Part shown: piece after piece, positions 1,084-26,332 of the stretch | How positions within the stretch are numbered: the stretch's first letter is position 1 | Layout: each line of letters opens with the position of its first letter | From: Candidatus Vampirococcus lugosii | GTDB taxonomy: Bacteria; Patescibacteriota; Gracilibacteria; Absconditabacterales; Absconditicoccaceae | Assembly: GCF_018420025.1 (NCBI RefSeq) | Contig: NZ_JAEDAM010000004.1 | Location: forward strand, 1-26,332 | Length of the DNA stretch: 26,332 nt | Reading direction: 5' to 3' | Program-made: the position numbers and the translations under genes | Notes under the pieces: generated by a model | What the model was told of the DNA's origin: nothing | The model's input: only the letters and a program-made list of their open reading frames with translations | Database searches by the model: none

Positions 1084-1088
1084 ATAGT

Positions 1089-1904: not shown

Positions 1905-1912
1905 AAAAGATT

Positions 1913-2587: not shown

Positions 2588-2594
2588 ATACACT

Positions 2595-3290: not shown

Positions 3291-3293
3291 TAT

Positions 3294-4421: not shown

Positions 4422-4430
4422 ATAATAAAA

Positions 4431-5300: not shown

Positions 5301-5302
5301 TA

Positions 5303-6265
5303 ATGCCAAAACCAAATTTTTTTATAATATGAGAACCTAAATGCTGAACAACTATACTTCATAATTATCTTTCTAATCATAAAGATATTTTTATGTCTAA
5401 AACGAAGGAGCCTCATTATTTTAATACAGACCATCATCAAGAAGCTATTCAGTTAAATTGAGAAGGTAAAACAAAAAATAGTATTTTTAGATATATTAAT
5501 AAAGAAGATTACCTTTCATTATTTGAACAAGCTAATAAAGAACAAAAAATTATTTGAGAATCAAGTACAAATTATGCTTATAGTAAATTAGCAGCAAAAG
5601 AAATATATAATTTTAATCACAATCCTAAATTATTGTTTTGTATTAGAGAACCTTTAAGCTTTTTACAAAGTTGGCATTCTCAAATATATAAAACTTGAAG
5701 TGAATTTATAGAAAATTTTGAAGAAGCTTTAATTTCTGAAAAAGATAGAAAAAAATGAAAAAAAATTTGAAAAAGAACTAAATATTCTTCATTACTTTAT
5801 TACTCAGAATGGATAAAATTTACAGAACACTTACAAAGATACTTAGATTATTTCCCAAAAGAACAAATAAAAGTAGTCATATATGAAGAATTTAAAAAAG
5901 ATAATCAAAAAACTATAGATGAGATTACAGATTTCTTGTGAGTTGATAGAATGAAAATAGATTATAAACAAGCTAATATAACTCCTAAAACAAAATTAAC
6001 AAAATTTTTAAAATCTAAAAACATATTTAGAAGATTTTTTTGAAAAATTTTACCTTTATCTTTTAGAAAAAAATGGTGAATTTTTGTTGATTATATAGAT
6101 TCAAAAATTGATAAAAAAACAAATACATTAAGTCTTGATGCAAAAACAAAACTTATGAAACAATTTAAACCAGAGGTAGAGAAAATAAATGATTTACTTC
6201 ATAAACATAATCTTATAGATCCAGAGATTGATTTAGTAAAATATTGGTGATATGATAAAGTTTAA
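5303..6265 (+). CDS. Sulfotransferase (PAPS-dependent, Sulfotransfer_1-like)
   Basis: The 320-codon frame was checked for stops. The 5'-PSB loop is PNFFIIGEPKCGTTILHNYL. The 3'-PB-like segment is LLFCIREPLSFLQSWHSQ. Confidence 0.8.
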
Positions 6266-6287
6266 ATATTAATATAAATAATACAAT

Positions 6288-7184
6288 ATGGACAAAGTAA
6301 AAGTTATTTATACAGTTTGATACTGACATAGTGGCTCTAGTTTGATTAATGCTATTTTATGATGAGCTAATGATAGTATAGCAGTTTCAGAATTGATAAA
6401 ACTATGACATAGAATAAGAAAATTATGAAATAGTAAAATATTAAGTAATAGATGAAAATGTCAATGATGCAGAGAAAATATTTATAATTGTAAATTATGG
6501 TCTCAAGTATTAAAAGAAGTTCCAAAAGATAATATATATTTTCAAAATGAAAATTTTTTAGATAATTTAAAAATTAGCTTAAATATATTATTTTGATTTC
6601 CAAAAATAAATTTTAATAATTTAGATGATACTAAACTATATAATTCCATTATAAAAAATTCTAATAAAATATATGATAAAAATATAAATACTGTTGTAGA
6701 TTCTTCTAAAGACCCAAGAAGATTAAAATATTTACAAAAAAATCCTAATATAGACTTATATGTAATTTACCTTACAAGGGATCTAAGATGAGTAAGCAAC
6801 TCTATGGAAAAAAGATGAAAAAACTTTTGAAGAACTTATATTATATGGCATATATGGAATATATTATCTTATATAACATATAAAAAACATAATAAAAATA
6901 AAAAAATAATGATAAGTTATGATAAATTTACTCAAAATCCAGATAAATATTTAAAAAGAATAAAAGATAAATTTAATATTGATTTAAATATGGAAGATTA
7001 TCTTGATAATGCTAATAAACAAGAAATACACTATATATGATGAAATAGTATGCAAAAAAAAGATATTACTGAAATCAAATATGACCAATCTTGGAAAAAA
7101 AGAATGCCAAAATGGAAACAATTTATTCTTAATATGATTTGCTATATTCCAAATAAAATTTGGGTTTATAATAAAAAGTTATAA
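6288..7184 (+). CDS. Sulfotransferase-family protein (second, divergent)
   Basis: The 298-codon frame was checked for stops. The P-loop-like PAPS site is VIYTVGYGHSGSSLINAI. A later VDSSKDPRRLKYL...VIYLTRDLRGVSNS resembles the RDPR..S motif of bacterial sulfotransferases. Confidence 0.65.
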
Positions 7185-7195
7185 CTTACTACCCT

Positions 7196-7244
7196 TTCCT
7201 TATCTTTACAACTTCTTTTTAAAGTTTTAGTAAACTTTTATAGT
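7196..7244. repeat. wzx-tail repeat, copy A (decayed relic)
   Basis: Sequence TTCCTTATCTTTACAACTTCTTTTTAAAGTTTTAGTAAACTTTTATAGT has 3 mismatches over 49 nt to copy C (10114-10162). On the minus strand it reads YKSLLKL*KEVVKIRKG*, so the flippase tail is broken by a stop. Confidence 0.85.
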
Positions 7245-7338
7245 CAACTTTCTATCAAGGACTTAATTAAAAATACTTGATTTTTTATCAATATTGTTTA
7301 TAATGTTTTTAATTTAATTAGATAATTACTTATTATTT

Positions 7339-8594
7339 ATGTTAATAAAAAGATTGATTTTTGATGAAATTCAAAAAGTATTGGATACAAACAAAATAAT
7401 AATATTAAGATGACCAAGACAAGTTGGTAAAACCACTATAATGAAAGACTTACAAACAACTTTCAAAAGTCAGAAAACTGTGTTTTTGGATATGGATGAC
7501 CTTGATATAAAAGAAAAGATAAAGACAGCTTGAAACTTGATAAATTATATAAAATTTGAATACTCATATCAAGAAAATGAAGATATTGTTATATTTTTAG
7601 ATGAATTTCAAAATATAGAAAATGCAGGTGTTTTTCTTAAAAATATATATGATAAATATTCAAATATAAAGTTAATTTGTAGTTGATCCTCAAGTTTGGA
7701 AATAACAAAAAATATTGAACATCTTACAGGTAGAAAAATAGTGTTTGACATTACTCCATTTACTTTCAAGGAATATCTAAAAGCAAGAAAATTTAAAAAT
7801 TATAATATAAAGTTTAATATAAATAACTTTAATGAAATAAATGATTTTTATAATATTTATCAAAATGAGCTAGAAAATTTTTTAAAAGAATATCTAACTA
7901 TATGATGATATCCTGAAATTGTTTTGACTACTTGAAACATTAGAAAAAATATAGCAAAAGATATTACAAAACATATATTCAAAAAGATATAACATCATTT
8001 TTACATATAGAGAATATACAAGCTTTTAATAATTTGCTTAAAATAATTTCTTCTCAAATTTGAAGTTTGTTAAACAAATCAGAACTAAATGCTACTTTAT
8101 GAATATCAATAAATACTTTAAAAAAATATCTTAATATACTTGAATGAACTTTCATAATAAACATATTAAATCCTTTTTATAAAAATGTAAGGAAAGAGCT
8201 TAGCAAAATGCCAAAAATTTATTTTAATGATATGTGAATTAGAAATTATTTACTTTACTGAAACCTTGAAGAACTTCCAACTGCTAATATATGAGAATTG
8301 GTAGAGAATTTTGTTTATAATGAATTAAAATTAAAAGATAATAATTGAATAAATTTTTATAGAACTATATCCAAAGCAGAAATAGATTTTATATTTCAAA
8401 AATCATTTGATAAAATTATACCTATGGAAGTAAAGTATAGAAATAAAGTAAATGTCCCTGAAATTATGCAAAATTTTAGTAAAAACTATTCAAGTAAAAT
8501 AGATAAAAAAATAATTATTACAAAGAATAAATTAGAAATAAAAGAAGATGTTTATCTTATACCAGCTTGTTTGGTAAGTTTTATAAACCTTTAG
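7339..8594 (+). pseudogene. AAA+ ATPase with DUF4143 / PD-(D/E)xK-like C-terminal domain, disrupted by a 1-nt frameshift
   Basis: Frame 1 (7339-7992) encodes MLIKRLIFDEIQKVLDTNKIIILRGPRQVGKTT (Walker A), FLDEFQ (Walker B) and TIGGYPEIV, then stops at 7990-7992. Frame 0 continues from about 7971 with YIQKDITSFLHIENIQAFNNLLKIISSQIGSLLN...MPKIYFNDMGIRN...AEIDFIFQ...PMEVKY to TAG 8592-8594. The total of 1256 nt is not a multiple of 3. One extra A in the run at 7968-7971 would restore a 418-aa protein. Confidence 0.8.
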
Positions 8595-8597
8595 CTT

Positions 8598-8641
8598 TTC
8601 CTTATCTTAACAACTTCTTTTTTAAGTTTTAGTAAAGTTTT
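8598..8641. repeat. wzx-tail repeat, copy B (relic)
   Basis: Sequence TTCCTTATCTTAACAACTTCTTTTTTAAGTTTTAGTAAAGTTTT has 2 mismatches over 44 nt to copy C. The minus strand reads KTLLKLKKEVVKIRKS* with no gene body upstream. Confidence 0.85.
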
Positions 8642-8757: not shown

Positions 8758-10110
8758 ATGGAACTTAAAAGAAATATATATCAAGAATTGACAAACTGGA
8801 GTAAAAAGAAAAATAAAAAGCCTCTTATCTTGAAAGGTGCAAGACAAGTATGAAAATCTTTTGTTATAGAACATTTTGCAAAACATAATAATATAAACAT
8901 ACATAAGATAAACTTTCAATCTCAAAAAGATGCTTTTTATATATTTGATTGAAATCAAGATGCCAATACTATATTAACCAAGATTGAGTATTTTTTAGAT
9001 ACAAGTATAGATATAGACAATGATTTATTATTTTTTGATGAGATACAGGAATATCCTAAAGCTATAAATTCACTTAAATTTTTACAAGAAGAAAAACCAG
9101 AACTTAAAGTTATAGCAGCTTGAAGTTATCTTTGAATTATGAAAAATCAAGAATCTTTCCCGGTATGAAAAGTTGAATATCTTTCTATGTTTCCACTTAC
9201 TTTTGAAGAATTTTTACAAGCAATCGATAAAAAACTTTATGATTTTTATAATACTATAGATGTGGATAATATGAAAGTTATAGATACTTTTTTTCATCAA
9301 AAATTGCTTGATAAGTTTTATTTGTATTTGGCTATATGATGAATGCCTGAAGTTGTTTTGTCTTTTATAGAACATGTAAAAGATAATTCTTTATATGAAA
9401 CTTTAAATATAGTTAGAAAAAAACAAGAACAGCTTCTTGAATCATATAAATCAGATTTTTCTAAGCATGCATGAATAGTAAATTCAAGTCATATACTAAA
9501 TGTTTTTGAAGCAATTTCTATACAATTATCAAAAGCAGATTATGAAGAAACCAACAAGTTTAAATTTACTTGAGTTATACCAAATCAAAAAGGTTATGAT
9601 AGGATAGTATGACCACTTACTTGGTTATCAAAAGCAAGACTTGCTATACAAAGTTTTATCATATCAGATACTAAACAACCTTTAAAGGCAGAAGTTCAAA
9701 AAAATAAGTTTAAAGTATTTATGCATGATATATGACTTTTAAATGCTGAATTATCTACTCCTATACATTCATTATTAAATATAAAAAGTTCTTTATGATC
9801 ATATAAATGATATATTATAGAAAATTTTATAGCTTGTGAATTATTTTCAATTACTGATAAACATCTATTTACCTGGACTAGATGAAAATCAGAGATAGAG
9901 TTTATATTTGAGAAAAAAACACATCTAATACCCATAGAAGCTAAATCATCAGATAAATCAAGGAAAGCTAAAAGTTTACTCTCTTTTATAAAAAGATATA
10001 ATCCTACATATGCATATAAGTTTACAGCACAAAACTATTGAAATAAAAATTGATTTGAAACTATTCCTTTATATTTAATTTGAAAAATATTTAAAGAAAG
10101 AAAGTATTAA
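8758..10110 (+). CDS. AAA+ ATPase with DUF4143 / PD-(D/E)xK-like C-terminal domain (intact paralogue)
   Basis: The frame has 450 codons. Motifs are PLILKGARQVGKSF (Walker A, Gly=TGA), LLFFDEIQ (Walker B), LAIGGMPEVV, FMHDIGLLN and SEIEFIFEK...IPIEAKS (nuclease-like E-x-E/D...E-x-K). It matches the 7339-8594 gene only at family motifs. Confidence 0.85.
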
Positions 10111-11642
10111 TTTTTCCTTATCTTAACAACTTCTTTTTTTAGTTTTAGTAAACTTTTATAGTTTATGATCAAAAATCATAATCAAAATATAGCAAAAGCT
10201 ATCATCAAGTACAATAAATTTTCATACCTTGCACTATTTGTATATTCAAAAAAAATTCATTTCAAACTATATAGTATAAGTCATACTATCAAAAAATAAA
10301 CTATATTTCAAAATAAAAATCACCTATAAAGTATGATAGGGTTTTTCTTATATATGTAGATAAATGAAAATAAAAACATCATAAACCAAGCTATGATACT
10401 TGATATAACTGCTCCATATACTCATATAAAAGGTATCAAAGCTCCATTTATAAGGATATTTACAAGTGCAGCAAAAGCTATTATCTTTACTCTATTTTTT
10501 GGTTTTCCATAAGCATTTATCACTACAAAATTGAACTGAAATAAAACTTTTAGAACCAAAAATAAAGCTATAAACTGTAAAAGTATACCAGAAAGTAAAA
10601 AATGATCACCAAATAATACTATAGATACTATATCTCAAAATAATAAGAAAAATACTCAAAGTGCAAAAAATATAATTCAAAAATAATTATAATATATGTT
10701 TTGTAATATCTTAATTTTAAAATTTTCTTTTTTTTCTATAAGCTCTGTGATGATAGGCAAGAAAAGTTGCATGATAGGTCATATAAACATTCATTGTATC
10801 ATAAACAAACTTTTAAAATTTGTATAATATCCTGCACTTTCTGTTCAAGCAAGGAACAAAACCATCTGTAAATCTATCTGTCACATAACAACTCATGCTT
10901 GACCTCAAAGTAATGCCCATAATCCATAACTATGAAAACTTTTTAAAGTATCTTTATTGTATGATATATCTATCTTTTGAAGTTTAACCTTTTTTAAAGC
11001 TTTTATATATAAAAATATACAAGAAAGTACAAAAGCTATAACTCATCAAAGTATCCAAGTAAGAAAATAATTTTCTATACTACCATTTTCAAAAAGAAAA
11101 AAACTTAATGTAAAAGCAAATATAAGCCACATTCTTATAGCATTTGAAAATCTTTGATAGAATATTTCTTGAAAAGAATTTAATATATTATTTACAAGAC
11201 CATATAAATTTAAAAGTATAAAATAAGCTATAATATAGTATATAAAAGTTTTACTAGCATAAGAATCAAGATATATGTTTGATATCACATCTGCTCAAAA
11301 GTATATAAGTAAAGATATGATAATAGAAAAAAATATTTGAAAAATGATAGTATATCATATCAAAAATCAAACTTTTTTATCTTCACCTTTAGCAAGAAAC
11401 TTAGGTATAAAATAATTTAAAGCTCACTTATTTCAAAGATCTCAATATATTACAAGTATACTTACAAGTCAAAGAAGTGAATATATAATTCAAATATCTG
11501 AAACTCATAGATCATTTGAAAGTATAGTTCTTATAAGATATCAAGTAGGAGCTATGATAAAAGCAAAAAAGTATAACCAAAATCATTTAGTTAATAATTT
11601 CTTTGCAAGTGTTTCTTCCTTGAAAAGTTGATTATCTTTCAT
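10107..11642 (-). CDS. wzx: MOP-superfamily oligosaccharide flippase (Wzx / polysaccharide biosynthesis protein)
   Basis: The 511-codon minus-strand frame was checked triplet by triplet for TAA/TAG. It contains track ORF 11046-11288 in frame. The protein is hydrophobic with many helix-length segments. The N-terminus MKDNQLFKEETLAKKLLTKGFWLYFFAFIIAPTGYLIRTILSNDLGVSDIG is typical of Wzx/PST proteins. It sits beside the glycan locus. Its stop codon (complement of 10107-10109) overlaps the ATPase stop at 10108-10110. Confidence 0.75.
10114..10162. repeat. wzx-tail repeat, copy C (functional 3' end of the flippase gene)
   Basis: Sequence is TTCCTTATCTTAACAACTTCTTTTTTTAGTTTTAGTAAACTTTTATAGT. On the minus strand it encodes the last residues NYKSLLKLKKEVVKIRKN* of the 10107-11642 ORF. 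Confidence 0.85.
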
Positions 11643-11675
11643 TTATATTTGATTTTTTTAGGTAAATAATAAGTT
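11642..11675. repeat. 34-bp direct repeat, copy 1 (immediately upstream of the wzx start codon)
   Basis: TTTATATTTGATTTTTTTAGGTAAATAATAAGTT is identical to 12953-12986. Position 11642 is the A of the wzx ATG on the minus strand. Confidence 0.9.
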
Positions 11676-11725: not shown

Positions 11726-12337
11726 TTATTTTTTACAAAAGTTTTTTTGGTCTTGAGTTAAAACTTCTCATAGTCAATCAAGTATCTTATAGTTTTTAGG
11801 TGATTTTTCTAATTTTTCTCTTATTTGTATGAGTGCTTTTTTGTATGTTTTTCAAGTTCTTTCTTCTATAACTTTCTCATTTACATCAAAAAGATTTTTA
11901 AAGAAAAAGTATATATCATATATATCTCTATTTGCATTTCTTTCAATAAAAGAAACAAGTTTATTTGCAAATATAGTTGATTTATCTTGTACTTTTATAT
12001 CTGTTCCATAAAAATTTACTATTTCATATTTATTATTTTTCCAAATTTTCCTGTTTATATCTATTTTTATATTTACATCATATTCTCAGTAAGAAAGCAA
12101 TATATTATGACCTTTTTTAACTTTTCAGTATTTTTTTAATATATCTACCATCTCCTCATCTACTTGCTCAAAGTCTTCCAAAAGATCAAAATCTAAATCT
12201 GTAGAAAATCTATCTAATCAATATAAAAAATAACAAGCAGTTCATCATTTAAAAGCCAAGTATTTACCAAGTTTTGATGAAAAAATATCCTTTAATATTA
12301 AAAACATAATTTGTCTATGTTTATCAGTATTAAGCAT
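11726..12337 (-). CDS. abiEii: AbiEii/AbiGii-family nucleotidyltransferase toxin (type IV TA, DUF1814)
   Basis: The 203-codon frame was checked for stops. The N-terminus MLNTDKHRQIMFLILKDIFSSKLGKYLAFKGGTACYFLYGLDRFSTDLDFDL carries the KGGTA...R.S.DLDF nucleotidyltransferase signature of AbiEii. It overlaps the upstream gene by 8 nt (ATGCTTAA). Confidence 0.8.
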
Positions 12338-12890
12338 TGTTTAGTATTTTTTTAATTTCTAAAATAACTCTTTTATTGTATATCAAACTTATCTTTTCTA
12401 ATTTATCTTTATCTATATCTTCTAAATTATCAAAATAATAGTTTGCTGATAAATATAACCTATCACAGATAGCTCTTTCCTTGCTTGCTATCATATAGTT
12501 TCATTTGTTTATAATTCATATAGGATTTAAAAGAATATCTTTTTTTAGGTTTAAGTATCTAAAATTAACTCCTAAAAACTGTTTTGTAATAGTATTATCA
12601 CTTGCAAGAAATATAGTGTCTTGATAATCTTGAAATATAATTCATTCTTTTTTAAGAACTGTTTCAAAGCTAATATATGAATTTTTTTTAAGTTTTGTTG
12701 AAAGTTCAAGTTTGTTATATTTTTTTAATGTATATATTCATTTAGTTATATAGTCAAAAATACCGTTTTTTACTCATCTTGAAAAAAAACTTTTTATAGT
12801 TTCTTTATTTTCTATTCATACAATATTTTTTATATCATTGTATGTAAAAACTGTCTTTCAAGATCAGATTATTTTATCTATATTTTTCAT
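12330..12890 (-). CDS. abiEi: AbiEi-like antitoxin / transcriptional regulator
   Basis: The 186-codon frame was checked for stops and is translationally coupled to abiEii. The N-terminal wHTH-like segment is FTYNDIKNIVGIENKETIKSFFSRGVKNGIFDYITKGIY. The C-terminal SKERAICDRLY is as in AbiEi_4-type antitoxins. Position and size fit the family. Motif evidence is moderate. Confidence 0.65.
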
Positions 12891-12903
12891 ATATCATCTC
12901 ATA

Positions 12904-12927
12904 AGGTTTAAATCTAAACCTATTATA
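12904..12927 (-). promoter_or_regulatory. Candidate abiE promoter -10 box with overlapping inverted-repeat operator
   Basis: The minus strand reads TATAAT (complement of 12922-12927), followed directly by AGGTTTA-GATT-TAAACCT. This is a perfect 7-bp inverted repeat (plus 12904-12910 / 12915-12921), 14-31 nt upstream of the abiEi ATG. AbiEi proteins are known to autoregulate through inverted repeats. The AT-rich background makes chance matches likely. Confidence 0.35.
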
Positions 12928-12952
12928 ATGAAATTATGTAAAAATCAATATT

Positions 12953-12986
12953 TTTATATTTGATTTTTTTAGGTAAATAATAAGTT
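12953..12986. repeat. 34-bp direct repeat, copy 2 (upstream of the abiE operon)
   Basis: Identical to 11642-11675. It lies 63 nt upstream of the abiEi start. Confidence 0.9.
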
Positions 12987-13127: not shown

Positions 13128-15206
13128 TTACAAAATTCATGTATACCAGTGAATATCTTTTATTATTTGTTTTTCAAATGCTCATGGTGCATAATATACA
13201 TATATATGATCAAAAGATATTTTACTTGACATAAGATTTAATAAAAATTCAAATCATCAAACTACTATTTTTTTATTTTTTATTTGAGAATAGTAAATAT
13301 TTTTACCAACTCATCAAGTAATATTTTCAAATAATAATTCATAATTAAGATTATAGTTATTATTTAATAAATATTCAAAAAGTTCTTTAGATTTATTTTT
13401 ATTGACACAAAGTATAAATATATTATTATGTTTTGATATATTATCAATTATTTTATTTTTATCATTTTGTTTAGATAATTTAATATTACTATAAGATTTA
13501 TCACCTCATATTGAATAAAATCATTCTTTAGTATTATTTGAAAAAAATACAACTTCATTTTTATCAAAAAAATCCATAAATTCTTGATAATTAATTAAAT
13601 TATTTGTTCTATAAAATGTAAAATAAAATTTATTTTCATCATACATCATTTTTTTTATCAAACAAATATTATTGAATATATCGTCCATATCATCAAAAAA
13701 ATCTACAATACAATCTCTATCTTCATTTTCTAATTTTTCTGAAATAACAAGTAAATCTTCTCTCAGAGAATTAAAAAGTTTATTTGATAAATAAAAATCA
13801 ATATTTCATTTGATATAATCAATTTCTACTATATCTTTTGAAATTCAAATAAATTGTTTTGTTATTTCTTTGAAAAGAATACCAGTAAATATAATAAATT
13901 TAGTATAAAATTTATTTAATTCATATATATCAAGTCATTTAATTTCATATTTATATATAAAAAATTCAAGTTTATAAATAACAAAATATAGATCAAATGG
14001 TTTATTTAAATATTTTGATAAACTATTGTACCAAGTATCCCGATCAAAAAAATAAATTTTGTAATCAGATATATTTTTATTTTTTATAAATTCAAATAAA
14101 TTATAATGATTTGCTAGAACTATATCAGATAATTTTTTATCAATTCACTTTTGCAAAAAATTAGAAATTTTGAAATCATTTGCCAAAGATAAATCCAAAA
14201 ATCAATGTCATTTATCATATTGACTAAAATACTTTATTAAAAAATTAATTTCAAAAAAATTAAAATTATCTTTTCATAAAAATAAATTTGTATTTTCTTT
14301 ATCAAAAATAGAATTATTTCCCAAATATCAAATATTTTTTACTCATAAATTTGATAATAAAGTTTTTGCAATTTTAAGTTTTGATGGATTTTGAAAACAA
14401 ATAATTCATTTTTTATTTGTTGTTGCTATATCATACAAAACTTTTTTGAAAGATTCATCTCATACATAAAATTTATCTCAATCTTTTGATTTAGAAATTG
14501 TATTATCAGGTCATTTATTTATAATTTTGGAATTAACAGCTACTTCTTTTTTTAATCAAGGTAAAAAATAATTTGATTTATCTACATAATAATCATCTTT
14601 TATATCAAATATTTGATTATAAATACTTTCTGATCTTAAAATACAATTTTTTAAAATAGGAAATTTATTTGACAAATTTCAAAATCTTTCAACAAAAAAT
14701 TTAAAAATATTATAAGATGCCAAGCTATCTGTCAAAGCATCATGATAGTCTCAATCAATAATTATATTATATTCTTTTTTTAAAATTTCACTTATAATTT
14801 CCAAAGAATAACTCGGTAAAAAATGAAATATACTATGCGACAAATGAAAAGTATCCAAAGTTTTAACAAAAGATAAATCCATATATTTTGATAAAATATT
14901 TATATCAAACATAATATTATGTCAAATAATAACAGTATTTTTATCAAAATATTTTGAAATTTGCTTCAGAATATCTTGTATATACGGTGCATCTTGCAAA
15001 TCATTAACATTAATATTAGTTACGAATTTTACAATATTTTTTAAATCTAAACTGTTTGATTGTGGTTTTATATAAGATTTATATTTTTCTAATATATTAA
15101 AATTATTATCAAATTTTACTATTCATATTTGAATGGGTTCATCTTTTTTGATATCTAATCAAGTTGTTTCTAGATCTAGAGATATATAATTTAAATTTTT
15201 AAGCAT
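13128..15206 (-). CDS. dinG: DnaQ-type DEDDh 3'-5' exonuclease domain fused to a degenerate DinG-like helicase region
   Basis: The 692-codon frame was checked triplet by triplet. Exo I is ISLDLETTGL, Exo II is IIGHNIMFDINIL and Exo III is YHDALTDSLA, all in the first ~170 aa. The long C-terminal region has DinG-like end segments (VVGGFEFLLNL...YVYYAPGAF). I could not find a GxGKS/T Walker A. Confidence 0.7.
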
Positions 15207-15299
15207 AATCAAATTAATAAATATAAAAATACAATATTTATTGTATACTAAATAATTTCTTGAATTCAAGATTTTTAATAAGTTTTTATCAATTTTTAA

Positions 15300-15338
15300 A
15301 ATAAACAAAATGATGAAGTTTTTTGTCAACTTCATCAT
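15300..15338 (-). terminator. Rho-independent terminator after the clpC-like gene
   Basis: A perfect 11-bp stem ATGATGAAGTT (15310-15320) / AACTTCATCAT (15328-15338) has a 7-nt loop. On the minus strand it is followed by TTTTGTTTAT. It lies 22 nt after the stop codon. Confidence 0.7.
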
Positions 15339-15359
15339 AGTTTATATACTTAATATAAA

Positions 15360-17390
15360 TTAAACATTTTCAATTATTTCTTCTATTATTTTTGGTTCTA
15401 TTTGTTCATGAATATATCTAGAAATTGGTCTAGCTCAATATTCAGGTGCATAAATTTCATCAATAATAGATTGTATATTTTTTACATTATATTTTGGTAC
15501 TGATATTCATTTTTTTTCTTTCCATAATCTTGAAAATTCTTTATATTCTTTTTGAAAAATATCAATCATTATTTCTTTGGAAAGAGGTTTAAATACTATA
15601 GTATTATCTAATCTATTTAATAATTCAGCAGATATTTCAGATTTCAACTTTTCCATAACTCTTTCTTTCACTATATCAAAATCTTTATCAAAAGAATCTT
15701 TTGAAGATTTATTATTAGTTCAAAATCAAATTTTTACTACTTTTTTGGCAAATTCTTCCGATCAAATATTTGAAGTAAGAATTATTATAGTATTTTTGAA
15801 GTCAATTAATCTTCATTTATTATCTTTTAGTGTTCATTCATCAAGAATTTGCAACAAAATATTTAAAACATCAGGAGATGCTTTTTCTATTTCATCAAAT
15901 AATATAATACTATAAGGATTTCTTCTTACAGATTCTGTAAGAGTTCATCATTCATCATAACCAACATAACCAGGAGCAGATCAAATAAGTTTACTAGAAC
16001 TATTTCTATCCATATATTCCGACATATCAACTCTAATAAGTGACTTTTCGCTTTCAAAAAAATGTTTTGCTAACAATTTAGTAATATAAGTTTTACCAAC
16101 ACCTGAAGGTCATAAAAATAGAAATGATGCAATAGGTTTTTGTCTATCTATCACAGATATACGATTTCTTTTTATATAGTTTACTAAAGATTGAACTGCT
16201 TCATCTTGTCCAACTAAATCTTTTTTTATCAAAGTATCCAAATCTTTAAGTTTATTTAATTCTGATTCATTAAGTTTAGATTTAGGAATTCATGTTTTCA
16301 TAGACAAAACTTCACTTATATTTATACTATCAACATTTGTTCTCAAATGTTTTGGTAATGAATTTTGAGATCTAATATTTTTCATTTCTTGTTTCAAATT
16401 TTCTTCTTCTTCTTTAAGTTCCGCCGCTTTAAAATAATCTTGATTTAAAATTGATGCTTGTATTTTTTTTTGCAAAATTTCAAGTTTTTTTTCTACTTGT
16501 TTGTATTCATCATTTTTTTCTAATTTTTCTCATAAAGTAGATTGTCTTGCACATGCTTCATCAATTAAGTCTATTGCTTTATCAGGCAATTGTTTATTTA
16601 ATATATATCTTGAACTTAATTCAACAGAAGTATGTATTGCATTATCTGCAATATTTACACCATGAAATGATTCAAATTTTTCTCTAATACCAAATAAAAT
16701 TTTTTTAGTATCTTCATTACTAGGTTCATCAACATTTACTTCTTGAAATCTCCTTTTTAATGCAGGATCTTTTTCAATATGTTTTTGATATTCGTCATAT
16801 GTTGTTGCACCTATTAATTGTAATTTACCTCTAGATAAAAAAGGTTTAAGTATGTTTGCGGCATCAGCTCATCATTCTGTATTTCAAGCTCATATTATAG
16901 TATGTAATTCATCAATAAATAAAATAATATTATTAGTAGGATCAGTTGCTTCTTGTATAATAGTTTTTAATCTTGATTCAAATTCTCATCTATATTTGGT
17001 ACCAGCAACCAGTCCACCAACATCAAGCATAAAAATTCTTTTATTTTTTAATTTCTCAGGGACATCATTATTTTCTATTTTTTGAGCTAATCATTCAACT
17101 ATAGCCGTTTTACCAACTCAAGCTTCTCATATAAGTAAAGGATTATTTTTTGTTTTTCTCAAAAGAGTATATATAGTTTGCTGAATTTCTTCATATCTAC
17201 CTATCACTGGATCCAAATATCAATTTCTTGCTTCAAAATTTAAATTTGTTCAAAAATGTTCAATAGTAAGTTTTTTTTCTTCTACTTGTGAGGAAGTGTC
17301 TATTTTACTATCATCTCAATTATTTGTTCAATCTATAAGATCTTGATCCGATTCATTTTTTATTGACTTATAATTATTGTTTATATACAT
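15360..17390 (-). CDS. clpC: ClpC-like class I Clp/Hsp100 AAA+ ATPase lacking the Clp_N domain
   Basis: The 676-codon frame was checked for stops and contains track ORF 16290-16475 in frame. D1 motifs are [23 protein letters not shown] and ILFIDELH. The UVR-like linker is [20 protein letters not shown]2 motifs are [21 protein letters not shown] and GARPISR. The ClpP-docking loop is KIGFG. Only about 45 residues precede D1. Confidence 0.9.
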
Positions 17391-17488
17391 ATTTTATTTT
17401 TTAAGATATTATTTTTTAAATTTATTATTAATTTTTACTTTTAAGTAATTAATATTTATATATTAAACTTAAAATAAAATTAAATATA

Positions 17489-17701
17489 TTATTTTTTAAA
17501 AACATTTTTTAGACAAAATCTTTTCATTTCTTTCATTCATGAAAAAAAGAAATTAAATTTATTTTTTAAATTATTTTTTAATTTAGAAAAAAATGATTTT
17601 CATTTTGGAGATTTGGAAAATCAACCAAATCACAATAATGCTGTACCTATAACACCACCTATTATTACTTTATTAATTTTTTTTTCAAATAGATTCTTCA
17701 T
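17489..17701 (-). CDS. Small hypothetical protein (70 aa), possible single-pass membrane protein
   Basis: The ATG at 17701 opens MKNLFEKKINKVIIGGVIGTALLGFGGFSKSPKG... with one hydrophobic Gly-rich segment and a basic tail. No family was recognised. It is supported only by an open frame and a plausible upstream promoter. Confidence 0.3.
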
Positions 17702-17740
17702 AATTATTTTTTTAAGATAAATATATAAAAAAGTTTTTTG

Positions 17741-17768
17741 ATTATAATAATTTATAATATAAAATCAA
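17741..17768 (-). promoter_or_regulatory. Candidate sigma70-type promoter for the small ORF / clpC unit
   Basis: The minus strand reads TTGATT, a 16-nt spacer, then TATAAT (complements of 17763-17768 and 17741-17746), about 40 nt upstream of the ATG at 17701. Such hexamers arise easily by chance in this AT-rich DNA. Confidence 0.3.
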
Positions 17769-17790
17769 TATTAGTTGACTTTAATTTTTG

Positions 17791-17978
17791 TATTAAAAAA
17801 ATAATTAATAATCTCATTATTTTATATACAAATAAATTAATTTTATCAAGTTTACAAATTTTTGTAATACTGACAAATATTATTAAATAAACAATTTTTG
17901 CATTTAGGATTTTTTGCAAGACATTGATATCTACCAAAAAATATAAACAATTGATGAGCTTTATTTTTTCTGTTATTA
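17791..17978. repeat. 188-bp perfect direct repeat, copy 1 (orphan nth 3' end plus 61 bp downstream)
   Basis: Identical base for base to 21890-22077 by manual comparison of the full strings. On the minus strand it encodes NNRKNKAHQLFIFFGRYQCLAKNPKCKNCLFNNICQYYKNL* but is preceded by an in-frame stop (complement of 17984-17986). It is therefore a gene fragment, not a gene. Confidence 0.95.
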
Positions 17979-18053
17979 AGTGTTTAATCTCATTAAACTA
18001 TTAGAAAGCTGTTATTCTATTATTTATTTCAGTCTACAAAGATGAGTTTAAAT

Positions 18054-18105
18054 TTATAAAAAAATCAAGAAATTAAAGTAATTATATTTTACTTAATTTC
18101 TTGAT
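18054..18105 (-). terminator. Rho-independent terminator after the secreted-protein gene
   Basis: The stem ATCAAGAAATTAAAGTAA (18064-18081) / TTACTTAATTTCTTGAT (18089-18105) has one bulge and a 7-nt loop. On the minus strand it is followed by a T-run (complement of 18058-18063). It lies 60 nt after the stop at 18166. Confidence 0.65.
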
Positions 18106-18165
18106 TTTAGTAACAGACAATTTCTATTATAACTAGAATTATTATTTTTAATCTAAAAAATTAAT

Positions 18166-20472
18166 TTATTCAAATAATTTTGGAGATTGTCAAATATGAT
18201 ATTTTACAATAAAATTTTCTGCATAACCAGATGTTGTATGTCATTTATTTCAAGTTCTAAATTTGTTTAAATCATACATTAATGATTTATGATAATTACC
18301 AGTTTTTTTTCATCAAGGTAATTTATAAGTACCAGCTTCTCATATAGATCATCAAATTGTATTCCTAGTATATAACCTTCATTCAAGTATTAATTGTTTA
18401 TCTAATCAAGTTGTTCTTTCATATGAGTCAGTATAATTACTAAATCAAATAGCATCATCCCATATACTTATGAAACCTCAATCTCAATATATATATGCAT
18501 TTATTTTTTTTACATCATTTTTTATAAAGATATTTCATAAATGATCGTCATCATAATGATCTCTAATTAAAACTATTCATTTCATATCAACAATATCACT
18601 ATCAATTATTAAATTTCAATTTTTAATTACTATTGTTGACACATCTGATAAATCATAAATATTTGATATATCGTCTTCATATACTATATCATCATTATTA
18701 TTAATATCTAAATATAGTATTCAATTATTTTTTTGTTCATGAACCATTCATCTTATAGACTTTAATACATTACTTTTAAATTTATTTCTAAATTCAGATG
18801 TAGAAATACTAGAAAAATTTCTTTGCTGATTTGTTATTTTTTGATTTCAAATAGCTTGTGAATATCAAATTATCCTAATTCAAGAATAACTTGAATCATC
18901 TAGTGTTACTTTCCTATCATCTGGTTCAATTCAATCAGATAAATAATATCTAACTGTATTTCAATCTAAATCATATAAAACATATGGATCTGATTCTATA
19001 CTTACATTATTTATAAATTGATCTGTACCAGTATAATTTAAAATAAATTGTAATTCTGATTTTCAATCACTTAACATGTTATTAAATCAAGTTGTATACT
19101 GTATATAATATCAATTACTTGATGAAGTTAATGTATCTAAATTTTCAGTTTTTAAACCACTTTCTCAACTCAATCCAGATAAAGATTCTTTTTTTGGAGT
19201 TAATATTAATTTTTGTTGATTTCATATTATAAATCACATTGGATCCACATTCAATTCTCAAATATATGGTTTCAAAAAACTATAACGAACTGAAGAGACT
19301 GTCATCTTCGTTCATCATAAATTAAATCATATATCTCAACTATTTGATTTAAACGGTGATCTTGATTTAATTCAAGTCATAGGCACTGAAAAAGATTTAG
19401 CAGTAGAAGTAGGTATTCAAGAAGATGAAACAGTACCAAAATTTAAAGCAGTTCAAGAATTATTTATTCTATCAGAATTTTCTCAAGATTCATCCTCTAT
19501 ATTTGTAATAGATCTTGTTCAAGGTGTTCGTTTAATTCATTTATTTTGTTTAGTAGAAGCTGATATATTAAGACTAACTTCACATGAAGAAGAATTATCA
19601 GCATATATATTATTACATGTAGAAGATGGTGTATTTAAAGCATTTATAGTTATAGTAGCTGGAGGTGTAGTAGGCTTAGGTGCATCAGGAGGACACGAAG
19701 AAGTATTACATGGTCAACAACTTGTACTACAATTTCAGTCATCATCACAAGATTCTTTACAAGTTTGACTTCAACAAGATGATCTATTAGCAGTAAAAGA
19801 AGGAGCTTGAATACACTTTATTTTTCAATCATTAGACCATGATCAAGTAACTTCACAAATAGACCAATGTGTACTCCATGATGCTATATAACTACTACAT
19901 GCAGATGTAGTTGTTGTTACTGTTAAATCTGGATCTGGATCTGGGTCTCAATCTGGATCTGGATCTGGGTCTCAATCTGGATCTGGATCTGGGTCTCAAT
20001 CTGGATCTGGATCTGGGTTTCAATCTGGATCTGGATCTGGGTCTCAATCTGGAGCTGGATCTGGGTCTCAATCTGGAGCTGGATCTGGGTCTCAATCTGG
20101 ATCTGGATCTGGGTCTCAATCTGGAGCTGGGTCTGGAGCTGGTTCTGGAGCTGGGTCTGGAGCTGGTTCTGGATCTACCACTCTAGCACTAGCTCAATTA
20201 TGACAAGCTACGGAATTTTCATCTCTATCAACCTTAGCATGATCTAGTCACCCCTCTTCAATTGCATCAAACAGTTCATCTACAGTTTCAAAAGTTGTAG
20301 CATGATTAGACCATTCATCAAGTTGTTGCTGATTACCTCATCAAACAATAACTTTTGTTCAATCTCCAATAGTAACTTCTTTTTCAAGATTTCCTAATAC
20401 TAAAGGGTTTCATAAAATAGAACTTAAAGATATAAAAACAATTATAAACATTTTATATAATATTTTTTTCAT
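18166..20472 (-). CDS. Secreted protein with an acidic Pro/Asp tandem-repeat linker, a Cys-rich module and a large C-terminal domain of unknown function
   Basis: All triplets of the 768-codon frame were checked and show no TAA/TAG. The signal-peptide-like N-terminus is MKKILYKMFIIVFISLSSILG. It contains (DPDPDPDG)x8 plus PAPD/PAPE units. The Cys-rich stretch reads SACSSYIASWSTHWSICEV...CGSQTCKESCDDDGNCSTSCGPCNTSSCPP. About 480 aa then follow that I could not assign to a family. Confidence 0.8.
19927..20175. repeat. Coding tandem repeat: 8 x 24 bp followed by degenerate 12-bp units
   Basis: The plus-strand unit ATCTGGATCTGGATCTGGGTCTCA repeats at 19927, 19951, 19975, 19999, 20023, 20047, 20071 and 20095, with a few A/G/C variants. 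AGCTGGGTCTGG/AGCTGGTTCTGG units then run to 20175. In the gene frame each 24-bp unit encodes DPDPDPDG with the Gly as TGA. Confidence 0.95.
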
Positions 20473-20481
20473 TTTTTAATT

Positions 20482-21699
20482 TTAATTATTAAATTTTAAA
20501 TCTGCTACATAATCATCAACTCATTTAACATTTCAAAACAATCAATAATTATTTCTTTTTAATTCATTATCAACAAAGATATCCCAATAATAATATTTAT
20601 TCATATTATTAAATAAATAATTCATATCCGTTTCTTTATCTTTTTTAAGTACTTCAAATACTGTAAAAAACATAATAGTGCTTCTAATTTTATTTTTTCT
20701 TAACTCTCTTTGATTATCCATAAGTATAATATCATTATCTACAACACTTAATCATTTATTCATATAATTAACAGCTAATTCAAAGTCTCAAAAATTATAT
20801 TCAACAAGTCATTTATAATAATATGCTTCATATCAATTAGGATTTAAATCAATACTTTTATCTAAATAATCATTTATTTCTTCATATAAAGAAGAATCAT
20901 TTTTCATATATAATCATCTAGCAACTCATAAATATCACATAGGATAATTTTTATTATAATTTATTGATTCTTTAGCATATTCAATAGATTTTTCTATATC
21001 TGGATTTAATTGATTAACATTTAATACTATACTACTCAAAGAATAATAAATTTCAGATTTTAAACTATTACTATTAGTATCTAAAGATTTTTTAAAATAT
21101 TTAATAGATTCTTTATATTTTCAATTCCTAGCTAAATATCTTCATATATTTCAAGATGCCTCATGATTATTATCTATATCATAAGATTTATGATAATATT
21201 TATATCATAATTTTCTATCTCACATAATATCATATACATGTCATATCTGATTCAAAAGTATAGCTGCTTCATTTTCGGAAAGATTATCCAAATTTAATGC
21301 TTTATTATAAAAATTAATTGCTAATTCATATTCTTTTATAATTTCATTTGCAAATCATTTATAATACAAAACATTAAAACTATCTTCCTTATCTTCCAAA
21401 AGATCTAATACTATAGATGAATATTTATTCTCTTCATACTTATAGACTCATTCTTGCAAATAAGAATGTAAAAGTTGATCAAATTCTGCACTATCTAAAT
21501 TATCAACTCATTTTTCAGTATAATAAGTAATTACTGTTTCATAATTTCATAACTCAATCATTTTACTTATATCTACATTATTTTCTTTATTATTAAACTC
21601 TTCATCATTAAACTCATCTTTGTTAAAAAATAAAAAATAAAATACTAGTAAAAATGAAAAAGAAAAAATTAGTAAAAATAAATATTTTTTTTGATACAT
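20482..21699 (-). CDS. Tetratricopeptide-repeat protein with N-terminal membrane anchor
   Basis: The 405-codon frame was translated row by row. The N-terminal hydrophobic segment is MYQKKYLFLLIFSFSFLLVFYFLFF. Repeated TPR-like units follow, such as YYKGFANEIIKEYELAINFYNKAL, GHVYDIMGDRKLGYKYYHKSY, RYLARNGKYKESIKYFKKSL, YLGVARGLYMKNDSSLYEEINDYLDKSIDLNP and AYYYKGLVEYNFGDFELAVNYMNKGL. The stop lies 9 nt before the next gene's start. Confidence 0.75.
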
Positions 21700-21727
21700 A
21701 TTAAATAATATAAACGAATAAATTTTA

Positions 21728-21754
21728 ATACTAATTTTTAAAAAAAATTAGTAT
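21728..21754. repeat. Perfect 12-bp inverted repeat (A/T-rich palindrome) upstream of the TPR gene
   Basis: ATACTAATTTTT (21728-21739), an AAA spacer, then AAAAATTAGTAT (21743-21754). It lies 29-55 nt upstream of the TPR ATG (21699), inside the cassette. Its function (operator or terminator) is unknown. Confidence 0.5.
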
Positions 21755-21889
21755 ATGTCAATACTATTATTTTTTTTATCTTTTTCAAGTCTTTTTTGCT
21801 TTTTATAGCAAATATGTATTTAAAGTACTCCATTTTTCAAAACCAATTTAAACCTTTTAAGGTAGTGACATTTAGTATAAATTAGTTCT

Positions 21890-22077
21890 TATTAAAAAAA
21901 TAATTAATAATCTCATTATTTTATATACAAATAAATTAATTTTATCAAGTTTACAAATTTTTGTAATACTGACAAATATTATTAAATAAACAATTTTTGC
22001 ATTTAGGATTTTTTGCAAGACATTGATATCTACCAAAAAATATAAACAATTGATGAGCTTTATTTTTTCTGTTATTA
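21890..22077. repeat. 188-bp perfect direct repeat, copy 2 (true 3' end of nth plus 61 bp downstream)
   Basis: Identical to 17791-17978 and contiguous with the rest of the nth reading frame. Confidence 0.95.
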
Positions 22078-22640
22078 GGAATTATTTCTTCCAGTATTTT
22101 TGAGGTTTGAACTTCTCTTTTAGTTTTTACAATTCAAATTCTATTTACAATTCTATGAATATGTGTATCTACAGGCATAGTAGGAATTTTATAATATTCA
22201 CTCAAAAATACTTTTGCAGTTTTTTCACCAACTCAAGGAAATTTTATTAATTCATACAAATTATCAGATATCATATATCAATATTTTTCATACATAATAA
22301 TAGAAAGATTATTTTTAATATCATTTTTTGATAAATTTAATGATTGAGTATATAATATATTACTAGTTTTATAAATATTATTTCATTTTGAATTATAAAG
22401 TCATATTGATTTTATTTTTTCTTTGAAATTATCTAATCCTATATCCAAAATATCTTTTGGAGAATTTATATAATCATAAAATTTTGCAGTTGTTTTATTT
22501 ACTTGTATATCAGTTGATTGTGCTGAAAGCATAATTGAAATTAATAATTGAAAAGGAGTTTTGTAATTCAATTGAATTTTTGCATCAGGAAATTCTTTTT
22601 CAAGTTGATCTAGTATATAATTTATATCTATATTATTCAT
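21951..22640 (-). CDS. nth: Endonuclease III (DNA-(apurinic or apyrimidinic site) lyase / glycosylase)
   Basis: The 229-codon frame has track ORF 22401-22640 as its N-terminus (MNNIDINYILDQLEKEFPDAK...LLISIMLSAQSTD). The HhH-GPD motif is LIKFPGVGEKTAKVFL followed by VDTHIHRI. The C-terminal 4Fe-4S loop is C-x6-C-x2-C-x5-C (CLAKNPKCKNCLFNNIC). Confidence 0.9.
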
Positions 22641-23598
22641 AATATTATTTCAAAATAAAATATTTTTATACAAACAAAATCTTGAATAAATAATCTCAAG
22701 CAAAAAATAAAACCCAAAATCAAGCTATCATAGCTGGCAAAAAAGGTAAACTAGATCATTGTTCTCATTTATTAATAATAGAACTTACTACAAAAAATAA
22801 TATTCACAATACAGAAGAAATTATAGTATAAATAAATACATAATAAAACAAATTAGTATATGATAAATCATACATCATAAAATGAATAAATAAACCTACA
22901 AAATAAGCGATCATTACATCTCATCATCAAATTCATTCGGCATCTTTTATTCAAAATCTAAATCTAACATAGTATTTTCCAAATATATATATAAACATAA
23001 AGAAAACAAAAAAGATAATTCAACCAAAGAAACTTCGATAAAAATTTCAAACATATCCAAAAAATTGCCAAAATATAGTCCATAAAACTAAAAATAACCA
23101 AAAATAAGTATTTACACGGAAAAATAAAATATCATAAAAAAGTAATAATACTAATAACCAGTTAATAACTAAATAATATATCATATACAAAAAAAAGTTA
23201 TTTGAAAACAGTTCAAATCAAGAATTAAGAACCATAAAATAACTAATAACAAAAGCAAATCAAGAAACTATTTCCAAAACAGGATAAAATGAACTAATTT
23301 TTGATTTACAATTTCAACATTTAGCACCAGATAACAACCATGAAAATAGTGGAATTAAATTGTACCAAGATAGTTTTTTTTTGCAATGTGGACATTCAGA
23401 TCTTCAATAAAGTATTCATTTCAAAACTTCTTTATTAATTTCTCATCTTGTTCTCCAAATCAAAACAGATCCAAAAGATCAAAATACTAAACCAAAAATA
23501 AAAATATTAACAATAATAAACCATTCTATTATTTTAAAATCAAAAATAGTATAAGATTGCATTAATTCAATATTAATAAGTGATAATAGTATTTCCAT
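22627..23598 (-). CDS. pilD: Prepilin peptidase (A24 family, PilD-like) with N-terminal Cys-x2-Cys pairs
   Basis: The 323-codon frame was translated row by row. Motifs are SECPHCKKKLSWYNLIPLFSWLLSGAKCGNCKSKIS (zinc-ribbon/methyltransferase-domain motif), the aspartyl-protease motif GIGGGDVM, and the distal SLPFLPAMIAG. It is multi-pass hydrophobic. It overlaps the nth start by 14 nt. Confidence 0.85.
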
Positions 23599-23672
23599 AC
23601 TAAAAAATATAATTATAAAAAAATAAAAAACATATTAAATATAAAAAAGCATATAAAAAAACAATTATTTTT

Positions 23673-25883
23673 TTATAATTTTTCCAAAAATTTAGTATCA
23701 ATTTTTCTTATTCAAAATTTTGGGTTATCAAATTTTACTACAACTATTTCATTCCAAGTTTCCAATATACTTCATTTACCAAATAATTTATGTTGCACTA
23801 AATCTCATTCATCATAACTTATTTGAGTATTTTTTGCACTTGATCATCATTTTATATTATAAAATTTGGTAAGATAATCAGGAATTTCTTCTACAAACCT
23901 TGATTGCTTATTGAAACTTAATTGTCATCGTTTCATTCTACTATCTGCATGAGAGAAAAATAATAAATCTTTTGCTCTAGTAATTGCAACATACATAAGT
24001 CTTCTTTCCTCTTCCATCTCTTTTTGTTCAAATTTTGCTTTGGAAAGAGGGAACATATTTTCTTCAAGTCATACTATAAATACTACTGGAAATTCAAGTC
24101 ATTTACTTCAATGTATACTCATAAGTTTTACCATATCAGGTTCAGATTCTTCAGCCTCTTCCATATCTACTAATATTGAAATTTCTTCTATAAATTGATT
24201 CATTGCATCTATTCAATTTGTGTGAGTTTTTTCATTATATTTTGATGCAAGATTTATTAATTGTCATAAATTTTCCATTTTTTCTTCTGCTTTATCTTTA
24301 CCTTCACTTGTTATTAAATAATCTTTATATTTTATTGAAGATAACAAATTATTTATAAAATCCGTTGGATAAAGTCATTCAATTTGATTTTCCAAAAATC
24401 TAATCATTGTATTAAATGATTTTATATTATTCGTAGCTCAAGCAGTTATTTTTATGGGTAATGTATCAATATTATCTATAACATAATTCATATCTAAATT
24501 ATTTGTATTGGCATATTCTTGTATATTTTGAATTGTAGTTGTTCATATTTTTCTATTTGGTGTATTTATAATTCTTTTGAGAGAAATATTATCTTTTTTA
24601 TTCATTATATATTTTATATATGAAATTATATCTTTTATTTCTTTTCTCTCAAAAAATTTAAGTCATCACCATATTTTGTAAGGAATTCATTCTTGAAGTA
24701 ATATTTGTTCAAAAGGTTGTGATTGTGAATTTGTTCTATACAAAACTGCAAAATCTGACCATTTAAATCATTTTTCTTTTTGCAATCTTTTCATCAAATC
24801 AATAATTTGTGTTGCTTCATCAAATTCATCAGTAAATCCAAAAACTCTAATATGATCAGATCATCATCTATTTGATGTTACATTTTTTTGATATTGTTTT
24901 TCATTTCTTGCTATTATAGCATTTCATGCTTGTACAATATGATCTTTTGATCTATAATTTACTTCCAATTTAAAAGTTTTTAGATCTGGCCATCGTTCTC
25001 ATAATTTCAAAAAATTATCCATAACGGCTCATCTTCGTCAATATATACTTTGAAAATCATCTCATATAAAAGTTACATTTCAATCTTGTCATAATAATTT
25101 AATTATATCAAATTGAATTTGATTAGTATCTTGTGCTTCATCTACCAAAATATATTTAAATTGTTTTCTGTATTTTTCCAATATATCTGGATATTCTTCA
25201 AACATAATTTTAGTAATCATAAGAAGATCATCAAAATCCATAGAATTTGATGCCAACATTGATTTTTGATATTTTTCATAAATTAAAGAAACTGCTTCTT
25301 CCCAATCATTTCATACTAAATATAGAAATTTTTTATAAGTTATTCATTCATTTTTAAGAGCTGATATTTTCCATTTTGCTTCTTTTGGTTCTATTTTATT
25401 TTTTAATCAATTTTCATTTATTAAATTTTTGATTAAAGTCAATGTTTCTCAAGTATCATATATACCAAATTGAGAAGTATATCAAAGTTCCGTTTTATCA
25501 ATTTCATGTTTTAGTATTTTCAAAAATATACTATGAAATGTTCCCAACCATTTTAATGTTGATTTATTTATTTTGTGAACATTTGATATTGAATTTTGTC
25601 ATAATAATTCATCAAAATCTTGAGTATTTTCTGGGATATCAATATCTTGAGATATATTAATAAGTCTTTCTTTCATTTCATTTGCAGCCTTGTTTGTAAA
25701 TGTTACTGCAAATATTTGCAAAGGATTTATTCAATAATCAAATACTAAATTTGCTATCTTGTATGTAAGAACTCTTGTTTTACCACTTCCTGCTCAAGCT
25801 AATATTAAACTACTTGTTTCTATCCATTGTGCAGCTTCTCATTGTTGTTCATTCAAAGTTTCTTTTATTACATCTTTTATCAT
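23673..25883 (-). CDS. pcrA: UvrD/PcrA-family ATP-dependent DNA helicase
   Basis: All triplets of the 736-codon frame were checked. Motifs are [15 protein letters not shown] (motif I), [12 protein letters not shown] (Ia), [10 protein letters not shown] (II), FIGDDFQSIYGRRGA (III), VNYRS (IV), [18 protein letters not shown] (V) and [12 protein letters not shown] (VI). Confidence 0.92.
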
Positions 25884-26332
25884 TTTTGAAAAAAATATTA
25901 TTTTAATTAAAAATTATAACCAGTATAATAATCAAAAACTTATGAAATTCAATTAATTATGAATATAATCTTATACAACTAAATTAGAGAAAAAAATGAA
26001 TACTATAATATATATCTTTCAATATAATTTACAATCATTTCGAAAAGTCAGCACTTACAAAAACTTTATCTAAATTAGAACATTAACCTTCTGCAGTAAA
26101 AAAATAAAAAAAATTGAAAAGTTAATTAAGAAGTGATCTTTATAGAGTAAATTTTCTAAATACTTGATTTAGACAAGGATTTACGATAATCTAAAAAAGT
26201 ATTTATGTACTAAACAAATTTTATAATTTTATTTTAAATAATTTAAATATTTTTTCTTGAAGCTCATTTATTTGTTCTACTTTATTTATTCTCAACAAGT
26301 AAGTAATATCAAATTATTTATTTAATTTTATT

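Follow-up and report, generated by a model that had tools for sequence, protein, structure and literature searches.

The window analyzed here is a 26,332-nucleotide stretch of Candidatus Vampirococcus lugosii, a predatory bacterium belonging to the candidate phyla radiation (CPR), taken as positions 1 to 26,332 of contig NZ_JAEDAM010000004.1 (assembly GCF_018420025.1; GC content 21%). Directly behind nth, the gene for endonuclease III, it carries a 3911-bp block with two genes, one for a tetratricopeptide repeat (TPR) protein and one for a large secreted protein, and this block is bracketed by two 188-bp copies of the end of nth. The block contains no recombinase gene, the composition of its cargo is host-like, and the same kind of scar recurs at different target genes. 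On balance, and with moderate confidence, we favor the explanation that an operon native to this lineage, encoding the TPR protein and an adhesin-like protein, was recently inserted after nth without a recombinase of its own, duplicating 188 bp of its target.

The repeat itself is unambiguous. Positions 17791-17978 and 21890-22077 are identical at 188 of 188 positions, in direct orientation and 4099 bp apart from start to start, and on either side the first base beyond the repeat already differs. An exact repeat of 188 bases cannot arise by chance in 26 kb. The target gene nth (21951..22640, minus strand) is intact and encodes 229 amino acids (Pfam HhH-GPD, E 1.5e-21); its product matches at 100% the endonuclease III domain protein that NCBI lists for Ca. 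Vampirococcus lugosii. Self-comparison showed that copy 2 (21890..22077, minus strand) provides the functional last 41 codons of nth (plus one nucleotide), the stop at 21951-21953 and 61 bp of downstream sequence, and thus spans from codon 189 to 61 bp past the stop, with the iron-sulfur loop C-x6-C-x2-C-x5-C (CLAKNPKCKNCLFNNIC) inside it. Copy 1 (17791..17978, minus strand) repeats this nth tail together with its 61 bp, and after it comes the region upstream of the following gene; here the nth frame is closed two codons upstream by an in-frame TAA at 17986-17984, which makes this tail an orphan. A sequence-only reading of the window had described the two copies, their spacing and their content in these terms, and each element of that description was confirmed. 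The gene next to copy 1 (17489..17701, minus strand, a code 25 reading frame) encodes a small membrane protein of 70 amino acids with no Pfam match and is presumed to be the original downstream neighbor of nth. We found no microhomology or common motif at the four repeat borders, and no significant hairpin in the 61 bp after nth (z = 0.7). Because the 188-bp copies are perfectly identical, they point to a recent event.

The gene content of the locus becomes readable only with the genetic code of this lineage. In the V. lugosii contig TGA encodes glycine (code 25) and makes up 50-100% of the glycine codons in every gene; we assign it to glycine because the GAGSGKT motif in UvrD and the GEAGVGKT motif in Clp need glycine where TGA stands. 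A reading with table 11 was rejected since it yields only fragments of open reading frames (ORFs), and TGA as a sense codon restores long ORFs. The sequence-only reading had not remarked on this use of TGA, and the genes of the contig are unreadable unless it is taken into account. Under code 25 all genes from 13128 to 25913 lie on the minus strand, and their order in the direction of transcription is uvrD, the prepilin peptidase gene, nth, repeat copy 2, the TPR gene, the gene for the large protein, a hairpin terminator, repeat copy 1, the gene for the 70-amino-acid membrane protein and the Clp ATPase gene.

The cargo block (17979-21889) holds two genes with an upstream palindrome and a hairpin terminator of its own, as the sequence-only reading had also described. 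Its first gene (20482..21699, minus strand) encodes a TPR protein of 405 amino acids with an N-terminal hydrophobic segment (Pfam TPR_2, 7e-15; TPR_12, 5e-10). Upstream of this gene lies a 12-bp perfect palindrome (21728-21739/21743-21754) that adjoins a promoter-like TTGACA-16-AAAAAT sequence; promoter-like sites occur near chance level in this AT-rich contig (76 seen versus 59 expected), and scans for them are uninformative. The second gene (18166..20472, minus strand) encodes a secreted protein of 768 amino acids with a signal peptide, a (G)DPDPDPD linker, a Cys-rich region and immunoglobulin-like beta-sandwich domains. The operon ends in a hairpin followed by a U-run (18061..18108, minus strand), a terminator with 16-bp perfect arms and a folding energy of -20.5 kcal/mol (z = -5.5).

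No Pfam family was found for the product of the second gene, in which about 560 residues are conserved. Searches with the full-length protein were swamped by its Pro/Asp repeat; the family was recovered by an exhaustive search of representatives and by using the C-terminal part alone, and the exhaustive search gave 954 related proteins at E<=1e-3. An AlphaFold2 model built from an alignment of 33 relatives (mean predicted local distance difference test score, pLDDT, 81) shows a chain of beta-sandwich domains. In the PDB it best matches three adhesins (FdeC, intimin and InvE) and the surface-layer (S-layer) protein SbsC; over the query the template modeling scores are low (0.11-0.15), which is what a flexible chain of several domains should give. 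From this model we read the second cargo protein as a probable surface protein, adhesin or S-layer-like, which agrees with the fibrous surface described for V. lugosii. The Pro/Asp linker (GDPDPDPD) is encoded by a 24-bp tandem array (19926..20136, minus strand; 8.8 copies, 96% matches) with a local GC content of 45% versus 21% for the contig, and this array is probably prone to changes in length through slippage. Among the database entries of the large-protein family, P0144 is a V. lugosii paralogue. Across the entries P0142-P0191 (alignment A1), many public translations read TGA as tryptophan and show W at conserved glycine positions (for example NTIWW), which lowers the apparent identities.

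The 3911-bp block contains no integrase, transposase or reverse transcriptase among its ORFs or Pfam matches, and none of the contig ORFs scanned with Pfam belongs to a recombinase family. The block also lacks terminal inverted repeats, its end-to-end alignment score being 14 against 13.6 +/- 2.2 for shuffled sequences. Codon usage of the cargo is host-like, with a GC content at third codon positions (GC3) of 0.08 and with TGA providing 83-100% of the glycine codons (100% in the TPR gene). This usage matches that of the neighboring genes, and the cargo therefore comes from a lineage in which TGA encodes glycine rather than from a remote donor. We considered whether a tetranucleotide outlier at 19-21 kb marks foreign origin and rejected this, since the outlier reflects the Pro/Asp repeat array. 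Nor is there support for an origin in phages or plasmids: the cargo gave no tblastn match in phages and has no relative in viral contigs.

The nth locus is not the only bracketed insertion in this contig. The flippase gene (10107-11642, minus strand; Pfam Polysacc_synt/MurJ) ends in a functional 3' tail (10112..10162, minus strand) that contig self-comparison identified as the source of two orphan copies: its last ~17 codons (..KSLLKLKKEVVKIRKN, 10107-10162) recur at 93-96% identity. One orphan tail (..LLKLKKEVVKIRKS; 8596..8641, minus strand; 96% identical to the functional tail) lies between two AAA_14/DUF4143 genes and the other (..LLKL*KEVVKIRKG*; 7195..7244, minus strand; 94% identical) upstream of the first of them, so that three tail copies of ~50 bp bracket the two genes. 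A recent tandem duplication of the AAA genes was rejected, because they are only ~31% identical to each other versus 93-96% for the flanking tails; for the same reason we take them to be separate arrivals at one gene end. At the other end of the flippase gene, a 34-bp exact direct repeat has one copy in the flippase leader, abutting the start codon (11642..11675), and a second copy at 12953..12986. This pair brackets an AbiEii/AbiEi-like toxin-antitoxin module (11726-12953; Pfam AbiEii, 3.5e-19). Counting direct repeats of 30-400 bp with at least 80% identity, we found 5 pairs in the 26 kb of the window versus 22 in 1675 kb of 108 unrelated control loci, a density about ten times higher. Two further details of the AAA genes may be recorded: the stop codon of each overlaps the stop of the flippase tail in the same manner, and the first gene is frameshifted (7318-7992 / 7944-8594).

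Relatives of the cassette in other genomes carry the same pair of genes at other places. In 7 other loci a TPR gene stands immediately upstream of the homologue of the large gene, and the neighborhood is different each time. Because the genes are paired in all seven loci and their neighbors differ, the TPR gene and the large gene form a conserved unit of variable position. The closest homologue of the large protein (47% identity) is encoded in locus L163, from an Absconditabacteria-type assembly (GCA_041694255.1), where the cassette lies between fur upstream and sufC downstream. It is bracketed by a direct repeat of 135 bp (907-1041 / 4440-4571) with 80% identity. The first copy comprises the last 40 fur codons, the stop and ~12 bp more, and the second is an orphan fur tail, with the frame still open, between the large gene and sufC. 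This is the same architecture as at the nth locus, made from the tail of a different gene, and no core sequence common to the nth-tail and fur-tail repeats was evident. In locus L164 a gene for a 219-amino-acid protein, next to a member of the large-protein family, stands between the copies of a ~150-bp repeat (91-249 / 957-1121) that contains the tgt tail, a promoter (TTGACA/TATAAT) and the start MKRKLL. The TPR protein of V. lugosii is 29-30% identical to those that accompany the large protein in L163 and L164.

Taken across these loci, the repeats look target-derived: they follow the target and not the cargo, and their lengths vary (34, ~50, 135, ~150 and 188 bp). Neither property would be expected if a transposase stagger or an attachment site of one fixed kind had produced the repeats. 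All five repeats include the end or the start of a gene, which leaves the neighboring genes intact. These comparisons divide the integrative-element reading that had been proposed from the sequence alone. Its core stands, namely a block inserted after nth that keeps nth whole and, given the perfect identity, probably arrived recently. Its further claim, that the element itself brought the copy of the gene end, is probably wrong, as the block has neither integrase nor transposase nor terminal inverted repeats and shows host-like codon usage, and as the closest cassette is bracketed by a fur tail and the other insertions in the contig by ~50- and 34-bp target-derived repeats.

In the favored explanation, the insert would have been placed between two copies of the duplicated segment, leaving nth with a complete end and the next gene with its upstream region. 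The insertion may have survived in a gene-dense genome because both the nth end and the upstream region of the neighbor were kept. The duplication could have originated from widely staggered breaks that were filled in, from a template switch during replication, or from single-crossover entry of a circle. Recombination between repeats of 188 bp is plausible. A RecA-type exchange between them would either delete the cassette precisely, joining nth to 17790, or amplify it.

By analogy, the scar appears to match a variant of a rarely described kind of integrase-free insertion in which the target gene remains whole. This class, known as insertion with long target duplication, was defined by the Kobayashi group through genome comparison on restriction-modification genes (Furuta, Abe & Kobayashi 2010, PMC2853133); as represented in that paper, it dates from 2000 and its mechanism is still unknown (ref. 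37 in PMC2853133). The published class carries no mobility genes, has repeats of >30 bp that vary in length and often span start or stop codons, and occurs mostly in naturally competent species, and DNA breakage by restriction-modification enzymes has been proposed as the cause in the published cases (PMC2853133). The insertions described here resemble it in that a block of a few kb without a mobility gene is flanked by direct repeats of >30 bp and varying length, in that a stop or start codon lies within the repeats and the target stays intact, and in that the repeats on its flanks could afterwards promote its amplification or loss. The host also appears to be able to take up DNA, as it encodes ComEC, ComEA and type IV pili (PMC8080830). 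It differs from the published hosts in being a TGA-recoding CPR bacterium.

Several observations weigh against the favored explanation. The flanking repeat is missing at five of the seven other cassette loci, and among these seven a bracket of the L163 type occurs only in L163. The cargo departs from that of the published long target duplications, consisting here of a surface-protein operon, of AAA/DUF4143 genes and of an AbiE module. At nth we found no empty site, the feature by which the published class is defined: the nearest Nth relatives are 44-58% identical and have unrelated downstream genes, a second V. lugosii genome was not found, and we infer that the target was single-copy before the event. 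Scans of genome and metagenome contigs with the Nth protein returned nothing closer than 44-47%, the best Nth match overall being 58%. For other parts of the V. lugosii genome integrase genes are listed, and such enzymes could act in trans. Finally, the V. lugosii DNA was amplified by multiple displacement amplification (MDA) and by MALBAC (amplification cycles based on multiple annealing and looping) from ~10 cell consortia, sequenced with 2x125-bp reads and assembled with SPAdes 3.6.0 (PMC8080830); the 188-bp repeat exceeds any single 125-bp read, and read pairs would have to vouch for its presence in two copies.

This sequencing basis leaves room for an assembly or amplification artefact, in which the chromosome would hold a single copy and the second would come from a collapsed repeat path, an MDA chimera or a separate circle threaded into the chromosome. 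Contigs were cross-matched between assemblies, and one related locus (L165) carries an exact 127-bp duplicate of a length typical for assembler k-mers. We consider an artefact improbable, because four junctions would all need to have been produced consistently, because the other duplicated tails in the contig have diverged (93-96%) and are no assembly products, and because an independent assembly, L163, has the same architecture at 80% identity. A purely local history, in which the cassette always stood after nth and a tandem duplication ending inside nth was followed by a deletion or a templated repair patch, seems marginally less probable again. Tandem duplications with a breakpoint inside a gene do leave orphan fragments, and family members stand in tandem in L164, where genes at 1065-3479, 3719-5155 and 5269-6402 encode large protein, TPR protein and large protein, the two large genes sharing 84% identity across 516 bp. 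At nth, however, an entire cassette copy would have had to be lost in a second, precise deletion that left the repeat ends flush, the same improbable course would be required again at fur and the flippase gene, and the relatives have no cassette after nth. In the nth-downstream regions, whose synteny the sequence-only reading had suggested comparing, the relatives thus lack the cassette, their genes are unrelated and no empty site was found.

Two further routes agree with the insertion of a block and differ in how it entered. Site-specific integration would involve a non-autonomous element, cis-mobilisable or satellite-like, whose attachment site carried a surrogate nth tail and whose integrase was encoded elsewhere, as the integrase genes listed for this genome would allow. 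Elements of this kind classically leave direct repeats from a gene 3' end as their scar, and like the islands, prophages and integrative mobilisable elements found at gene 3' ends, the nth locus keeps a functional gene and has an orphan tail at the far border. The open fur tail in L163, with its many conservative changes, resembles a surrogate tail from another strain, and the presence of two different AAA genes at the same flippase-tail point looks like one site reused. We still think this route unlikely. No integrase, excisionase or relaxase is encoded in the block, no recombinase is present among the Pfam-scanned ORFs of the 26-kb contig, and the composition is fully host-like and not foreign. 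Related cassettes are bracketed by unrelated repeats from the tails of different genes (nth and fur) with no common core; to account for the three bracketed insertions of this one contig, three specificities would be required; lengths of 34, ~50, 135 and 188 bp are unlike one fixed site; and 188 bp of perfect identity far exceed the usual core site. Somewhat less likely still is a Campbell-type entry, in which a circle carrying the cassette and the 188-bp nth end, for example from a sister cell via competence, integrated by a single homologous crossover. Such a crossover gives exactly this structure of repeat, insert and repeat, with perfectly identical repeats and reversibly by homologous recombination; the whole repeat here is identical, its borders show no signal or microhomology, and DNA-uptake genes are present. 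The difficulty is that no replicon or circle is known here and that the question is only moved back, as the circle needs a source locus of the same arrangement: how the cassette first gained a piece of nth, and how it first arrived at nth, fur or the flippase gene, stays unexplained. The 34-bp repeat is moreover marginal for a RecA-dependent crossover.

Two other known systems share single features with the locus. A transposon also leaves its target doubled on both sides of the insert; the block, unlike a transposon, has no inverted ends and no transposase, and its duplication measures 188 bp. Target duplications of transposons are usually <10 bp, reach 19-26 bp for Mycoplasma IS1630 and are fixed per element (PMC2853133). 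In a diversity-generating retroelement the repeats would differ at adenines; here they are identical, and no reverse transcriptase ORF was found in the contig.

If recent insertion with target duplication is the right explanation for the nth locus, it extends a process hitherto tied to restriction-modification genes, since the same scar here surrounds a surface-adhesin operon, AAA/DUF4143 genes and an AbiE module. With three cases in one 26-kb contig and one in a second genome at a different gene, the process would be independent of restriction enzymes and may be frequent in the lineage. For CPR biology it would offer reduced, recombinase-poor genomes a route to gain accessory genes with their neighbors undamaged, and the 188-bp repeats could permit loss or amplification of a prey-contact surface protein within a population. 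As a tentative generalization, which we consider possible and would not yet rely on, Absconditabacteria such as Vampirococcus may insert cassettes by a general, sequence-independent mechanism in which 30-190 bp of the target are duplicated and which is possibly tied to DNA uptake, and the TPR and adhesin operon would have relocated in this manner repeatedly. Were such a general mechanism true, long target duplication would be one of the main ways in which these reduced genomes gain genes, and in which they reversibly lose surface and defence genes; the value of the finding rises if the pattern is general in Absconditabacteria.

The surroundings of nth and of the cassette in the other loci can be summarized briefly. 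Downstream of nth the genes are unrelated in the relatives L001, L161 and L162, and the common part is only pilD-(M17 peptidase)-nth. A prepilin peptidase gene lies upstream of nth in the V. lugosii contig (22640-23634) and in L001 and L161; an M17 peptidase-type gene between it and nth is present in relatives and missing in the V. lugosii contig. The cassette is flanked by nrdB upstream and an aminotransferase gene downstream in L166, by a thioredoxin gene and rnpA in L168, and by a divergent rplJ and rpsT in L172. In L165, the tyrS 3' end is present as an exact 127-bp duplicate (3729-3855 / 3956-4082) placed 227 bp from the original with 100 bp between them; 127 bp being a common assembler k-mer length, this duplicate may be an artefact. 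L169 (4032-4439) and L170 (3895-3935) encode the same large protein, and one of the two samples has an extra segment of ~326 bp downstream, which is bracketed by 41-bp repeats with 85% identity.

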